From an uncultured Chloroflexia bacterium (GTDB taxonomy: Bacteria; Chloroflexota; Limnocylindria; Limnocylindrales; CSP1-4), in the NCBI GenBank assembly GCA_963712745.1, contig CAVQJC010000002.1, positions 32,001 through 96,000 of the forward strand: DNA of 64,000 nt, written 5' to 3'. A program made the translations under genes and the position numbers. The notes beneath the pieces were generated by a model. It had not been told where the DNA came from. It did not search any database and worked only from the letters and a program-made list of their open reading frames with translations. This document shows, piece after piece, positions 21,514 through 27,684 of this stretch (the first letter of the stretch is position 1; every line of letters starts with the position of its first letter).

Positions 21514-21701
21514 CTGCGGCTCATTGTGCACCTCCACGGGCGCGGGCGCGAGATCCGTGTGTGCGTGCTCCTGCGCGACGAGCCAGAGCTCCCTTGGCAC
21601 CGTAGGACAGGGGGCACTGCCGCGGACCGCGATCATCAACCCGCGGCACAAGGTCGGCCTCGCTCGACGTGAAACGTGACGGTCGTGGTTATACTTCGGG
21701 T

Positions 21702-21938
21702 ATGAAGACCGCCGTTTCAGTCCCCACCGAGGTCTACGAGCAAGCTGAGGAGCTCGCGCAGCGAACTGGCCGAACGCGCAGTGAGATCTACAGCACGGCC
21801 TTGCGCGACTACCTCGCCCACCAGCAGACCGTGCCGGTGACGGCCGCTATGGACCGGGCCCTCGAAGAGATCGACCCCAGGCCTGATCCGTTCCTGGATG
21901 CGACAGCGCGTGAGACGTTGGCAGAAGCGGAGTGGTGA
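21702..21938 (+). CDS. Ribbon-helix-helix antitoxin (ChpI/MazE-like)
   Basis: MKTAVSVPTEVYEQAEELA...RSEIYSTAL; overlaps the toxin start. Confidence 0.88.
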   Translation: MKTAVSVPTEVYEQAEELAQRTGRTRSEIYSTALRDYLAHQQTVPVTAAMDRALEEIDPRPDPFLDATARETLAEAEW

Positions 21939-22276
21939 TCAGCCAGGGAGACGTCTGGTGGACGGATCTGCCTGACCCAGCGGGCTCAGAGTCAGGCTTT
22001 CGCAGACCGGTGATCGTCGTGCAGGGCGACCCCCTGAACCGCAGCCGAATCTCAACGGTCGTGTGCGTGGTTGTGACCAGCAACCTGAAGTGGGCCAGAG
22101 CACCGGGCAACGTCCGGCTCGCCGCGCGTGAGTCGGGCCTGCCGCGAGACTCCGTGGTCAACGTGTCGCAGATCTTCACGCTCGACCGCTCGCGACTGAC
22201 CGATCACGTGGGCGAGGTCGGGACCGCCAAGCTCGACACGATACTCGCCGGCATCGACGTCGTCCTGGGGCGATAG
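21932..22276 (+). CDS. mazF: PemK/MazF family endoribonuclease toxin
   Basis: QGDVWWTDLPDP.GSE.GFRRPVIVVQ, TSNL, GLPRDSVVNVSQIFTLDRSRL. Confidence 0.93.
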   Translation: MVISQGDVWWTDLPDPAGSESGFRRPVIVVQGDPLNRSRISTVVCVVVTSNLKWARAPGNVRLAARESGLPRDSVVNVSQIFTLDRSRLTDHVGEVGTAKLDTILAGIDVVLGR

Positions 22277-22599
22277 CGACCAATCGACCGGCCGATGTCG
22301 CCAGGCGCTATGGCCCGGATCCATAGACCGCAGCGCCTCGGTTCCAATGCTTGACTCTGGCGATCCACGGTCGTCGCCCCAGCGCGACCGACGCCTGCGC
22401 TGACCCCTTCGTGGCCGCCGCCACTCCGGTAGGAAGGCTTGGAGTGGCCGCGGCCCTGGGCGACCAGGACCCAGGGCCGGACCAGATGCCGCCGGGACCA
22501 GGAACGGTGGCACGCATCGTGGCCTGGGGCACACAGCCACCGATCTGTGTGGCCGGCGAGCCACATCACGCGGTGGTCGGTGCCTGCGCGTCCTCGCGA

Positions 22600-22659
22600 T
22601 TCGCAAACAGCAGGTCCTCGGTCCAGGTCCGAGCGTCGGCTCCATTCCCCGCACGCGAC
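22600..22659 (+). repeat. Degenerate tRNA-Thr-like 3' half plus conserved tail (copy 1)
   Basis: TTCGCAAACAGC-AGGTC-CTCGG tccaggt CCGAG-CGTCGGC-T-CCA, then ttccccgcacgcgac. Confidence 0.8.
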
Positions 22660-22818
22660 AGAGGCGGCTGCGCGATCGGAGGGCGAGCGGCCGGTCGAAA
22701 GCGGCACGACTCGTGATAGGGCGCGAGTGGCTGGTTCTCGGAATCGCTTCCGCGGGTCAGGATGCCCAGGTGAAGGCGCCGCTGGATGGGCCGAACCACC
22801 TTGAGCGGACCTCGCCGC

Positions 22819-23226
22819 CTATCGGTGTGTAAGCCGCTCCACGGGCTGGCCGGTGATGTCTGCGATGAGCTCGAAGTCCTTGTCAAGATGCAGGACCGTC
22901 AGTCGTGCCACTTCAGCGGTCGCGGCGATGAGCAGGTCAGGGATGGATGGAGCGCGGTGTTGACCACGGTCGGCGAGCGCGGTCTGGACCCGGACAGCTC
23001 GATCCTCGATCACCGGCGTGAGGTACTCAGTAGGCATCGTCGCCAGCGGCGGCCGCGCGAACCCCGACCGCAGGTCGTCCGCAGTGCGAGCGGAGAACCC
23101 GACCTCAAGACGCGTGACGGTGCTGACCCGCACCAGCCCGCGCTGGATCCTTGACGCCCATTCGCCTGCATCGGGACTCTGAGCGAGGCGGACAAGCGCG
23201 GACTTGTCGATCAGCCAGACGGTCAC
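22819..23226 (-). CDS. vapC: VapC/PIN-domain toxin
   Basis: [36 protein letters not shown]. Confidence 0.93.
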
Positions 23227-23444
23227 GACCAAGCATCGTCCATGACGTCGACATCGGCGAGGTCCACGAACGACTCCGCAAAGCGGGCGAGGTCGTCGAC
23301 GGTCACTTCGGCGATGGCGCCGTTCTTCTCGCGTGCGAGCGTTCGCCGGAGGTACTCGGTACGCGACAGGCCTGCTCGATTTGCCCTGGCGTCAATCGCT
23401 GCGAGGACGTCGTCGGGTATGTCACGGATCAGGATGTCGGCCAT
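23223..23444 (-). CDS. vapB: VapB/FitA-like RHH antitoxin
   Basis: [36 protein letters not shown] overlap with the toxin. Confidence 0.9.
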
Positions 23445-23465
23445 CGGTGCGCTCCAGGAGGCAAG

Positions 23466-25462: not shown

Positions 25463-25519
25463 TTGACTGGGTCGTACTTAGTACGATACCATGACCGCCA
25501 AGAGCCGTACTTAGTACGA
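25463..25519. promoter_or_regulatory. Two TetR operators overlapping a sigma70-like promoter
   Basis: CGTAC-TTA-GTACG palindromes at 25472-25486 and 25506-25518; TTGACT (25463) and TACCAT (25487) on the + strand. Confidence 0.75.
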
Positions 25520-25542
25520 ATCAGACGACGAAGGAGTTCGAG

Positions 25543-26586
25543 ATGCAGACGACGACCCGCGACGAGGCGGTCGCGACAGGGATGGCGAATGAGCAAGCGG
25601 CGACAGCGACGATGCGTGCGATCGTCCAGCGAGCGTACGGCTCAGCGGAGACGCTCGAGCTTGGCGACATCGCGCGACCGACGGTCGCTGCCGACGAGGT
25701 GCTCATCGAGGTCCACGCCGCTGGCGTCGACCGCGGCGTCTGGCACCTCATGACCGGGATGCCGTATCTCGTCCGACTGATGGGCTACGGCCTGCGTCGA
25801 CCGGCGCAGCCGGTGCCGGGGGCGGACGTCGCCGGGCGCGTCGTAGCGATCGGCGATGATGTGGAGCGCTTCGGCGTGGGCGACGAGGTCTTCGGCATCG
25901 CCGACGGCTCGTTCGCGGAGTTCGCGGTCGCGAAGGAGCACAAGCTCGCCCACAAGCCTGCCTCGATCACGCACGAGCAGGCGGCAGTCGCCTCGATCTC
26001 CGGTATCACCGCGCTCCAGGCATTGGCCGACATCGGCAAGGTCGAGGCGGGCCAGCACGTGCTCGTGATCGGGGCTTCCGGGGGCGTCGGCAACTACGCG
26101 GTCCAGATCGCGAAGGCCATCGGCGCGTACGTCACCGGCGTCGCGAGCACCGCCAAGCTCGAGCTCGTTCGGTCACTCGGGGCCGACGACGTCATCGACT
26201 ACACGGCCGACGACTACCTCGACGGATCCCGGCGCTTCGACCTCATCATCGATATCGGCGGCCGCAACCCGCTGCGACGTCTGCGCAAGGCGCTGACGTC
26301 TGCGGGCACGCTCGTCATCGTCGGCGGCGAGGGCGGGGATCGGCTCACGGGCGGCATGGCCCGCCAGATCGGCGCGCTGCTCTGGTCACCGTTCGTATCA
26401 CAGCGGCTGACGATGTTCATCAGCACGGAGGACCACCGCTTCATCGACCGGCTCGCCGAGTTCATCGAGCGGGGAGAGGTCACCCCACCCGTGGGTGCGC
26501 GCTACGCGCTGGAGGATGCGCCAGCGGCTATCGCGGATCTGGCGGCCGGACGCGCCGAGGGCAAGTCGGTCATCCTCGTCCGCTAG
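25543..26586 (+). CDS. NAD(P)-dependent MDR oxidoreductase (zinc-independent, quinone-reductase-like)
   Basis: VPGADVAG, GDEVFG, VIGASGGVG, LGADDVIDY. Confidence 0.9.
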   Translation: MQTTTRDEAVATGMANEQAATATMRAIVQRAYGSAETLELGDIARPTVAADEVLIEVHAAGVDRGVWHLMTGMPYLVRLMGYGLRRPAQPVPGADVAGRVVAIGDDVERFGVGDEVFGIADGSFAEFAVAKEHKLAHKPASITHEQAAVASISGITALQALADIGKVEAGQHVLVIGASGGVGNYAVQIAKAIGAYVTGVASTAKLELVRSLGADDVIDYTADDYLDGSRRFDLIIDIGGRNPLRRLRKALTSAGTLVIVGGEGGDRLTGGMARQIGALLWSPFVSQRLTMFISTEDHRFIDRLAEFIERGEVTPPVGARYALEDAPAAIADLAAGRAEGKSVILVR

Positions 26587-26726
26587 GATCGCCCGGCAGG
26601 CGGCTGCGCGGGCTCCGAGGCTGGCCGAGGAGTCCGTCCTCGCTGATGAAGGCACCAAGCATCGTGCCGAGCGCTTCTGAGGCGCTTGACTTACATCACC
26701 GACTCGACGAGTGATATCATCTGACC

Positions 26727-26969
26727 ATGATCCGTACGCAAGTGTCCCTTACCCCAGAGCAGATGCGACGGCTCCGTCAGGAGGCACGCCGCCGGCACGT
26801 CTCCCTCGCAGCCGTCGTGCGCGATGCCGTCGATCGTGTCGTGCCCGACGAGGATGAGCTACGGCACGATCGTGTCGATGCGCTCCTGAGCGTGGCCGGG
26901 TCTGTGGCCTCGGGTAGCGGCACGGTCGCGAGAGACCATGACGAGGTGCTGGCGGAAGGTCGCTGGTGA
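26727..26969 (+). CDS. vapB: CopG/RHH antitoxin
   Basis: MIRTQVSLTPEQ..RLRQEA...SLAAVVRDAV...ARDHDEVL. Confidence 0.88.
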   Translation: MIRTQVSLTPEQMRRLRQEARRRHVSLAAVVRDAVDRVVPDEDELRHDRVDALLSVAGSVASGSGTVARDHDEVLAEGRW

Positions 26970-27358
26970 CCCTGTTCGTGGACACCAGCGGGATCATCGC
27001 CTTGGTCGACCGCGATGATGCAGCACATACTGGGGCCGTAGCGGCGTTTTCCATGGGCCACGACGAGCCGCTCGTGACACATGCCTACGTAGTCGTCGAG
27101 ACCCTTGCCGTCGCTCGACGGCGCTTCGGCGCCGCCGTCGCTGCCGACCTGGTCGATCGCGTCCTGCCCGCCCTCGTGGTGCATGAGGTGGACTCGGAGC
27201 TCCATGCCTCGGCGCTCGTGGCCTTCCGCGAGACCATCGAGTCTTCGGTCTCACTCGTAGACCGGACGAGTTTCGCGTTCATGCGTCGCGAGGCTATCGG
27301 CCGCGCCATCGCGCTCGACGTGGACTTCAGGACAGCGGGGTTCGAGACGGTCCCCTGA
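26966..27358 (+). CDS. vapC: VapC/PIN-domain toxin
   Basis: LFVDTSG, VVVETL, SLVDRTSF, ALDVDF..AGF. Confidence 0.92.
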   Translation: MTLFVDTSGIIALVDRDDAAHTGAVAAFSMGHDEPLVTHAYVVVETLAVARRRFGAAVAADLVDRVLPALVVHEVDSELHASALVAFRETIESSVSLVDRTSFAFMRREAIGRAIALDVDFRTAGFETVP

Positions 27359-27381
27359 CGTCCGCGCGGCGTACTTTGGGA

Positions 27382-27442
27382 TCCGCAAACGGCGGGTCCT
27401 CGGGGCAGATCCGAGCGTCGGCTCCACACCCCGAGCGTGAAC
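27382..27442 (+). repeat. Degenerate tRNA-Thr-like 3' half plus conserved tail (copy 3)
   Basis: TCCGCAAACGGC-GGGTC-CTCGG ggcagat CCGAG-CGTCGGC-T-CCA, then caccccgagcgtgaac. Confidence 0.78.
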
Positions 27443-27684
27443 TGGCCCCGTTTCGGGCTACCGGCTGCCTGGAACAGCATGCCCTGACCTCCGCGCTGAC
27501 CCCTGGCTACTCCGTCAACCTTGCACGAAGACCGCCACCGTCGGTCCGTCTGGCGAGCACCTGGCCGCGTTCTCGACAAGGTCGGTGGCCATGCGCGCGA
27601 CGCTGTCGCCGGCATGCCCCGCTTGACCAGGAAGAGCGAGAGGGTCGAGGGGAGTGACCGGCCTCGATATCCCGGTCGAAGCCG

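Follow-up and report, generated by a model that had tools for sequence, protein, structure and literature searches.

Three partial copies of a threonine tRNA gene, tRNA-Thr(CGT), each covering its 3′ half, lie among toxin-antitoxin (TA) genes in a 64,000-nt stretch of DNA from an uncultured Chloroflexia bacterium (assembly GCA_963712745.1, contig CAVQJC010000002.1, positions 32,001-96,000 of the forward strand; hereafter the window, on contig C2). These sites are probably worn attachment (att) junctions left by small mobile islands whose att site copies the tRNA 3′ half, and the piece of DNA that holds them would be a fragment of an old array. They appear, that is, to be decayed and rearranged att sites of tRNA-targeted integrative mini-islands, resembling cis-mobilizable elements (CIMEs) or tycheposons, and not an integron. 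This reading is favored because the sites match a real tRNA gene and its downstream tail on another contig; because homology boundaries between related genomes coincide with such units; because integrase traces adjoin some of the sites; and because the T-loop changes all run from A/T to G/C, with copies far from the gene tending to be changed most. The sites derive from tRNA-Thr(CGT) and carry att-type flanks, their kind bounds exchangeable cassettes, and those cassettes lack an integrase. Integrase-poor cassette arrays found across a genus are noteworthy; the window feature seems to be a relic of one.

All three sites are direct repeats on the forward strand: site 1 at 22589-22681, site 2 at 24593-24651, and site 3 at 27372-27478. 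Each matches tRNA-Thr(CGT) positions ~31-75, from the anticodon loop through to CCA, together with flanking sequence. Site 1 comprises a left arm (GTCCTCGCGA), a core at about 22600-22644, and then the tail; site 3 retains the tail and its hairpin, GGCCCCGTTTCGGGC; site 2 is the most decayed, with the acceptor strand TATCGGT. The shared T-arm motif GGTCCTCGGNNCAGNTCCGAG occurs at 22613, 24601, and 27395, all on the forward strand, compared with an expectation by shuffling of 0.01; three matches were reached in 0 of 100 shuffles. Mean column identity in the three-site alignment is 77%, and 11-18% of core positions depart from the gene sequence. A 125-nt query drawn from the gene and its downstream flank only (contig C5, 295866-295990) matches sites 1, 2, and 3 with E values of 3.3e-12, 1.1e-8, and 9.1e-10. 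T-stems are unbroken throughout, whereas the 7-nt loops read TCCAGGT, TCCAGAT, and GGCAGAT, respectively, versus TTCAAAT in the gene. The original prediction, made from the sequence of the window, had recognized the repeated half-tRNA, the intact stems, and the noncanonical loops, and in these respects it was right.

The bacterium's own assembly (G000; 20 contigs, 4.2 Mb, with C2 accounting for 234 kb) contains one credible tRNA-Thr(CGT) gene, at C5:295866-295940. Sequence past the CCA end of this gene (beginning CTCCCCACGCGTGA) equals the ~15-nt "non-tRNA tail" of the window sites. The tail had been described as a non-tRNA sequence shared among the three; it is not peculiar to them, and belongs to the native locus as well. 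A native origin of both loop and tail had been named beforehand as grounds for abandoning the idea of a propagating site family. The tail does match the native locus and the T-loop does not, so that half of this objection holds.

A search of G000 with the three-site profile finds 17 places at E<1e-4: the three window sites; the gene; 12 copies downstream of the gene; and one on contig C9. The 12 copies are direct, all on the forward strand, and extend over 82 kb to the end of the contig. No match to PF00589 (tyrosine integrase) was found on C5. Side-by-side comparison defines a repeated unit of ~100 nt: 9-10 nt of left arm (usually TCCTCGCGA), then the tRNA portion that begins in the anticodon loop and ends with CCA, then ~45 nt of tail containing a small hairpin (GGCCCGTTTCGGGC). 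The unit first proposed, a tRNA half and a short tail, was correct as far as it went; the conserved part is longer, by ~9 nt on the left and extending ~45 nt on the right, hairpin included. An intact tRNA gene in the same orientation stands at the head of the arrays on G000:C5 and in relatives G008, G013, G014, G021, and G024, and is absent for the window. The possibility that site 1 is itself a decayed gene was rejected, since site 1 has the array-type left arm; a tRNA 5′-half remnant was sought between the MazF gene and site 1 and was not found. A 72-nt "tRNA-Thr(cgt)" called by ARAGORN at G000:C1:483790-483861 looks false: it lies in a stretch 92% conserved with C2:137996-138066 and lacks proper flanks.

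Such units are widespread among the relatives, whose genomes (designated by G numbers) are metagenome-assembled genomes (MAGs) of 57-95% completeness. Among the matches listed, the gene-derived query hits 39 of the 41 genomes searched, and multiple half-copies occur in eight: G014, G016, G021, G022, G024, G013, G009, and G008. The scan of genome and relatives that had been suggested was thus productive; beyond the 17 places in G000, a unit profile confirms arrays in G008, G013, G014, G016, G021, and G024. (The unit profile, in which the site 1 copy was included, also matches site 1.)

Homology breakpoints, read from cassette alignments between genomes, coincide with these units. The clearest cassette, 2.7 kb at G000:C5:343884-346671, carries one open reading frame (ORF) of 618 codons that looks SARP/TPR-like by eye and is 94% identical to its counterpart in G013. 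Identity jumps from ~40% to >90% exactly where the left core begins, and falls back to ~40% just past the CCA of the right core. A 1.4-kb cassette encoding a Fic/DOC protein is 95% identical between G000 and G014; it sits exactly between two units in G000, G008, G014, and G021, at differing positions in the array. In the window itself, positions 26665-27427 (the VapBC-3 TA pair plus site 3) are 90.6% identical to G024:C1:1265416-1266174, where the cassette has a unit on either side; homology fades just past the CCA of site 3, and identity to G024 over 26669-27430 rises and drops in the manner of the G013 case. Boundaries at a repeat are therefore seen at the right-hand end of VapBC-3/site 3 and in the G000/G013 and G000/G014 cassettes, in keeping with the earlier proposal that the sites form a repeat family marking cassette ends. 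Because the cassettes are 91-97% identical between species, versus 67-83% for orthologous genes of the genus, they appear to have been exchanged recently. Each shared piece consists of core, tail, cargo, left arm, and core, and encodes no recombinase. This layout is as expected for an integrated circle carrying an arm-core-tail attP.

Array cargo besides TA genes includes Fic, a DUF4143-ATPase, and, by eye, a putative AbiE-type pair. The best matches of the Fic cassette protein are to Chloroflexota/Candidatus Limnocylindrales MAGs (61-73% identity), a tentative basis for regarding the genus as Limnocylindria-like. Among 80 loci with Fic relatives outside the genus, none has a Thr unit. At 16 of these 80 (L049-L128) the Fic gene has some tRNA gene as a neighbor, not always the same one, often positioned 100-250 nt upstream of it. 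Flanking tRNA fragments are seen at one locus only, in a Kribbella record, where the Fic gene stands between two tRNA-Phe 3′ fragments. The Fic family appears to be common tRNA-island cargo.

Integrase traces adjoin a few sites. The PF00589 search covered 11 genomes containing 58 Thr half-copies among the matches listed. In G014:C11, a frameshifted tyrosine recombinase ends ~110 nt before the unit at 73852; in G018:C1, a short remnant with an HxLRH motif lies in the first island after tRNA-Thr; and in G024:C2, a 297-aa integrase beside a terminase gene lies 1.6 kb from the unit at 307362. Two further matches within 7 kb of half-copies are both in G016. A search for a tyrosine recombinase next to tRNA-Thr had been recommended; genes or remnants do adjoin these few sites, and none is found on C2 or C5. 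Relatives of the G014 pseudogene were found in 8 of 49 genomes, including its own copy, at 10 loci; a Thr unit adjoins one of the 10 (that in G014) and a tRNA gene none, so this family was rejected as the general partner of Thr sites.

G000 has four PF00589 matches: two on C4, presumably Xer genes; one on C12; and a fragment near tRNA-Lys on C17. The C12 gene belongs to an intact-looking integrative module (L043, C12:3001-11000; integrase at 3671-5431, reverse strand), which by eye also encodes a putative excisionase-like helix-turn-helix protein and a large, putatively primase- or helicase-like protein. This integrase lies ~320 nt from a 3′ fragment (~3290-3352, forward strand) read by eye as tRNA-Gly(CCC), which matches no tRNA gene of the assembly. 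In G008 (L138, C3:297001-313000), an intact 312-aa tyrosine recombinase at 4916-5854 (forward) lies directly upstream of tRNA-Pro(TGG) at 4720-4794 (reverse), with a 20-nt tRNA-Pro 5′-half fragment 5.9 kb away at 10717-10736. For the tRNA-Pro system described below, it is a candidate for an element that is still live. Ordinary tRNA-targeting integrative elements do exist in the genus, and are far fewer than the scars.

The T-loop differs from copy to copy. Variants among the copies examined are TTCGAAT, TTCAAGT, TTCGGAT, TTCAGAT, TCCAGAT, TCCAGGT, TCCACGT, and GGCAGAT; two copies (C5:353418 and C5:362242) have 8-nt loops through one inserted base. The loop is the most A+T-rich stretch of the unit, and all substitutions relative to TTCAAAT are from A/T to G/C. 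The native loop is kept in 6 of the 13 non-gene copies on C5 and C9 of G000, and the changed ones are mostly distal. Moreover, the same variants recur in unrelated places: GGCAGAT in both C5:377263 and site 3; TCCAGAT in both G021 and site 2. Changes confined to this direction are expected for unconstrained drift at a G+C content of 68%, that of the genome, and so resemble GC-ward decay. The odd loops are read here as convergent drift in copies that would no longer make tRNA, with common descent of some possible. The original prediction had taken the shared loop changes for the design of a propagating family, an interpretation that these observations do not support. The three window cores are probably inactive.

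Nor do the units resemble integron sites in structure. DNA folds of the three window units and one C5 unit give z scores of +0.20, -0.60, -0.68, and -1.44 relative to shuffled sequences; since units fold no better than shuffled sequence, they have no attC-like structure by this measure, which did not include an attC-model scan. Of the ten genes in 21700-27360, five lie on each strand. The integron-like system at first envisaged is therefore not upheld: there is no adjoining integrase, no attC-like fold, and no common gene orientation.

Pfam confirms the naming of all ten proteins between and beside the sites: RHH (ribbon-helix-helix) plus PemK/MazF, three pairs of RHH plus PIN, TetR_N plus TetR_C, and a zinc-type dehydrogenase. 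The four TA pairs and the TetR/dehydrogenase pair first reported are thus secure as families. The former are predicted type II systems, each with a small RHH gene overlapping or abutting a PemK or PIN gene, above Pfam cut-offs. The order begins with the MazEF-type pair on the forward strand: RHH antitoxin, 21702-21938 (RHH_5, RHH_1); and MazF/PemK toxin, 21932-22276 (PF02452, E 3.8e-26). Between sites 1 and 2 lie two pairs on the reverse strand: VapBC-1, 22819-23444 (PIN 22819-23232, PF01850; FitA-like RHH 23223-23444); and VapBC-2, 23785-24460 (RHH 24230-24460, with its PIN gene). Between sites 2 and 3 lie a TetR-family regulator on the reverse strand (24787-25452; TetR_N, TetR_C_1) and, on the forward strand, a medium-chain (zinc-type) dehydrogenase/reductase (25543-26586; ADH_N, ADH_zinc_N, ADH_zinc_N_2) and VapBC-3, 26727-27358 (RHH 26727-26969, PIN 26966-27358). 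Modules and sites were said to alternate, which is true in part: VapBC-1 and VapBC-2 share one interval, and the TetR/dehydrogenase pair shares another with VapBC-3. Both intervals hold TA, TetR, and dehydrogenase genes only, and in this they are like CIMEs: att-flanked, with no genes for recombination or transfer. Beyond site 3 are two large ORFs named by eye from their translations: 27685-28743 (reverse; 352 aa, putatively CorA-like) and 28791-31460 (889 aa, putatively GH15-like).

Another tRNA scar, absent from the earlier account, lies between VapBC-1 and VapBC-2. It is a 39-nt 3′ fragment of tRNA-Arg(GCG) at 23577-23615, 92.3% identical to gene positions 37-75 (E 4e-10, or 1.4e-8 genome-wide). 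The gene, called by both ARAGORN and Rfam, lies at 33874-33949 on the reverse strand with its 3′ end toward the variable region, and the fragment has the same orientation. ARAGORN reports two other tRNAs in the window: tRNA-Ser(GCT), and a doubtful 93-nt "Phe" (37076-37168, reverse) that looks like a false positive and is not reported by Rfam at E≤1. Rfam at that threshold, applied to 21000-38000, reports tRNA matches to the Arg and Ser genes only, leaves the sites unscored, and reveals no other meaningful family.

Synteny with G047, G001, G009, and G011 is confined to the 5′ side of tRNA-Arg. The order in G047 and G001 is tRNA-Ser, tRNA-Arg, ~500 nt, a VapBC-2 homologue (81% identity in G047, partial in G001), and then homologues of the window from 10611 down to 3. 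BLAST of these loci (L129, L130) against the window delimits two extra blocks, absent there in both genomes. One, 24526-33873 (9.35 kb), lies between VapBC-2 and tRNA-Arg, and contains site 2, the TetR and dehydrogenase genes, VapBC-3, site 3, the 352-aa and 889-aa ORFs, and more. The other, 10612-23784 (13.2 kb), lies between the backbone and VapBC-2, and contains the PBP1A gene, MazEF, site 1, VapBC-1, and the Arg fragment. Extra DNA at this locus thus amounts to ~22.5 kb relative to the two relatives, and holds all three Thr sites. Comparison across the interval from PBP1A to tRNA-Arg had been recommended, and it proves unsuitable as a frame: the interval is not conserved. In G047 and G001 the backbone follows tRNA-Arg with just VapBC-2 intervening, and their PBP1A homologues are elsewhere. 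MazEF also varies in position: in G011 and G006 it is found upstream of an intact tRNA-Thr gene, in G045 it is close to a half-copy, and in G021 it lies within the array. On G000:C9, a tRNA-Val 5′ half (7133-7173, reverse) lies 320 nt from the tRNA-Thr unit at 7492 (forward). This and the Arg fragment in the window indicate that att scars of different tRNAs become interleaved. Because placements of PBP1A and MazEF vary in relatives and a Val half adjoins a Thr unit on C9, the window array is, judged by sequence comparison, a mosaic: pieces of tRNA-Thr array that would have been rearranged within, or carried into, the tRNA-Arg variable region. The window piece is probably an old, inactive array fragment, rearranged beside a tRNA-Arg att scar. 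Base composition does not mark it as foreign, a possibility rejected because G+C across 18-34 kb (0.65-0.69) resembles the C2 mean of 0.686.

The bin may include a second, related organism, to which C2 would belong. Contig regions C1:337-514 kb and C2:1-207 kb are collinear, with ~65-84% nucleotide identity over protein-coding blocks and 94% in the block beside the tRNA-Ala/Ile pair, which we take to be the rRNA operon. The two contigs carry duplicated tRNA sets (Ala, Ile, four Ser, Arg), CheckM-type contamination is 5.03%, and the acceptor strand reads CGTCGGC in the C2 sites versus TGTCGGC in the C5 array. The likeness of C1 and C2 seems to reflect two related organisms, or else an old segmental duplication; the tRNA-Thr(CGT) gene of the C2 organism itself may be absent from the assembly. 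(The tmRNA tag of this genome is GNNRQPALALAA.) Most of the listed sequencing runs that contain parts of the window are labelled as metagenomes of sediment or estuary; soil, wetland, and aquatic labels occur once each.

Half-copies are not peculiar to tRNA-Thr. A search with every tRNA of G000 gives 21 copies of the Pro(TGG) 5′ half; 16 in all of the Thr(CGT) 3′ half (13 from this search, and window sites 2 and 3 and C5:323815 from others); eight of the Gly(TCC) 3′ half (C20:652-660 kb, C15, and C11); seven of the Val(GAC) 5′ half (C8:73-94 kb, C16, and C9); and a few each of various halves of Asn, Lys, and Arg. The tRNA-Pro array (C5:73679-110161; L047, L048) has 16 units over 37 kb, spaced 1-5 kb apart. 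Each unit combines ~25 nt from upstream of the tRNA with its first 39 nt and with ~35 conserved nt in which there is an inverted repeat (GGAGCCTT...AAGGCTCC). Each interval holds one to three genes, ~80% of them oriented as the tRNA, and no integrase. A tRNA-Pro unit is matched in 32 of 41 genus genomes, several with 4-9 copies. The same order also includes genomes of ~1.1 Mb (family f2, G025-G040), in several of which copies of the tRNA-Thr(CGT) 5′ half (positions 1-40) occur 2-5 kb upstream of the gene, for example in G026:C16, G031:C98, G036:C18, and G029:C10. Apparently the same tRNA-Thr is targeted through its other half in these streamlined relatives.

The following model would account for the arrays. 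The circular form would be a ~100-nt attP (arm, tRNA half, and tail) plus cargo, without an integrase. Rare and transient tyrosine-integrase modules would insert such arm-core-tail circles, either into the tRNA gene itself or into a copy already in place; cassettes present alongside would accrete; and departure or decay of the integrase module would leave integrase-less cassettes to pile up. TA, Fic, DUF4143-ATPase, and putative AbiE-type genes might be over-represented because they resist loss or are useful.

Several observations weigh against this interpretation. The window and the whole of C2 lack a tRNA-Thr gene by ARAGORN, and C2 has no match to PF00589, PF00239, or PF07508 (transposase families were not searched); the absence of gene and recombinase from the window had been stated at the outset, and stands. 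A PF00589 match lies within 2 kb of only 3 of the 58 half-copies listed and within 7 kb of 5, no integrase is matched to Thr sites by a functional or co-occurrence test, and for most cassettes an integrase origin is presumptive. Not all homology reaches the sites: the MazEF match to G021, G010, and G045 (82-85% identity) covers 21685-22277 only, stopping at the gene borders short of site 1, and that of TetR plus dehydrogenase is at background identity (~75% in G045; separate pieces of 73% and 75% in G010) and also falls short. In G024 the PBP1A homologue adjoins the tRNA-Thr array distally, and the sites there face it in the opposite orientation to those of the window; an Arg fragment on the far side of VapBC-2 is not predicted by a single simple integration at tRNA-Arg. 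Finally, a protein search for VapC-3 relatives in metagenomes gave five loci, of which none has a Thr unit and none a tRNA. A 36-nt exact VapC-3 stretch is found in 0 metagenome contigs. As for free or viral forms, a degenerate core-plus-tail pattern matches 0 viral contigs. In four of 20 runs, whose short contigs at depth 3-6 speak neither for nor against excision, pieces bridge each site as in the window, with no joint at a site.

How, then, might integrase-less cassettes arise? Each interval could once have been a full integrative element with its own integrase, from which deletions spared addictive or useful genes with no mobilization in trans. Integrase fragments in some intervals (G014, G016, G018), the degenerate window sites, and TA pairs as common, loss-resistant cargo are all consistent with this. 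Such decay is nonetheless distinctly unlikely as the general explanation: near-identical cassettes in two species both lack an integrase and both end in units, and neither the 16 Thr intervals of G000 nor the tRNA-Pro array contains an integrase remnant by six-frame hidden Markov model search. Scarcity of integrases would also suit reshuffling by RecA-dependent homologous recombination, with the ~100-nt units acting as portable homology and no site-specific enzyme; breakpoints inside near-identical cores fit both mechanisms. This seems very improbable, since cores are just ~45 nt, integrase remnants do adjoin some sites, and the origin of half-tRNA units with conserved arms is left unexplained.

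At the other extreme stands a dedicated cassette-capture system, an analogue of the integron, in which a resident or trans-acting recombinase captures, stacks, and exchanges integrase-less cassettes as its normal mode. Much about the arrays is suggestive of it: 12 to 16 or more units, spaced 0.85-16 kb apart, at four or more tRNAs in one genome, with both unit flanks conserved; integrases almost nil (the 3 of 58 sites listed); single-gene cassettes exchanged between species with both ends in units; and tRNA-Pro units that bring the tRNA upstream region, with ~80% of array genes co-oriented with the tRNA. Yet the only integrases common to array-bearing genomes are a conserved pair ~40 kb apart, which we take to be XerC/XerD; units lack an attC-like fold; Thr arrays and window alike have genes in both orientations; integrase pseudogenes by sites point to ordinary elements; and the window copies are decayed. 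Such a system is therefore unlikely. A broader conception is possible, if doubtful: a genus-wide, tRNA-based counterpart of the integron, in which integrase-less cassettes of one to a few genes, each with a ~100-nt attP-like unit built on a 3′ or 5′ tRNA half, are traded between species and stacked by the dozen at Thr, Pro, Gly, and Val by rare trans-acting recombinases. If so, each tRNA-Pro unit would include a duplicate of the tRNA promoter, from which the cassette might be transcribed. Worn att junctions of small tRNA-targeted islands remain the preferred reading of the window sites.

Much gene gain proceeds through islands that start at tRNA genes, yet it is seldom possible to see how an element with an integrase turns into fixed cargo. 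Dozens of tiny cassettes with both att ends, shared between species at far higher identity than the remaining genome, offer a natural system for the delivery, stacking, and exchange of integrase-less DNA, and show the build-up of TA and defense genes in uncultured, sediment-associated bacteria. For annotation, tRNA halves found far from tRNA genes can be displaced pieces of an array.

Integrons stack small, mostly single-gene, TA-rich cassettes, each ending in a conserved recombination site. The arrays described here differ: no adjacent intI; no attC-type palindrome; cassettes not co-oriented; and sites that come from tRNA genes and are used beside the tRNA. In the integrative and conjugative element (ICE) and integrative and mobilizable element (IME) systems of streptococci, CIMEs are single elements beside an ICE at the 3′ end of a protein gene, whereas here long arrays stand at tRNA genes and no cognate ICE or IME was found. 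As outlined in the available text of McMurdie et al. (PMC3146451), the CIME concept covers att-flanked DNA, functional or former, that lacks recombination and transfer genes and lies in tandem with related elements.

A near parallel is found in the tandem ssrA islands of Dehalococcoides, probably of the same phylum. There, according to the same text (McMurdie et al. 2011), 15 of 31 islands lack an integration module, and are proposed to be cis-mobilizable and to move by accretion; 16 encode a CcrB-like serine recombinase; and integration is at tmRNA, the repeat being 20 bp long. Common to both are tandem islands after one small-RNA gene, with direct repeats of its 3′ end and additional conserved bases. 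In contrast, several tRNAs are targeted in the present arrays, through ~45-nt halves set in ~100-nt units; such recombinases as occur, few in number, are of the tyrosine type; and cassettes, commonly of 0.85-3 kb, are much smaller and almost always lack an integrase, so far as the available description of the Dehalococcoides islands allows comparison.

In Prochlorococcus, to judge from the accessible portion of Hackl et al. (bioRxiv 10.1101/2020.12.28.424599), tycheposons seed islands in a similar way: integration at a tRNA leaves partial tRNAs, and with each later insertion the older content moves further from the tRNA. Broken integrases and additional partial tRNAs are dispersed through those islands, and the elements are transient and rare relative to them. 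The tycheposon's tyrosine recombinase with a replication/helicase-primase module was not seen in the arrays here; and that portion of the source does not mention 12 to 16 or more copies per locus, as found here. Additive flexible islands at tRNA genes of Alteromonas vary in length by cassette addition and repeat the last 52 nt of the tRNA at the island end (PMC4119200, as available). Those cassettes are large, with islands of up to 110 kb and more, and dense half-tRNA arrays are not described in that text. No description of dense tRNA-half cassette arrays in this group was found in the literature that was accessible, subscription journals and supplements aside. The arrays differ from described cases in three respects: the density and number of their units; the targeting of several tRNAs, by the 3′ or the 5′ half; and how seldom an integrase is present.

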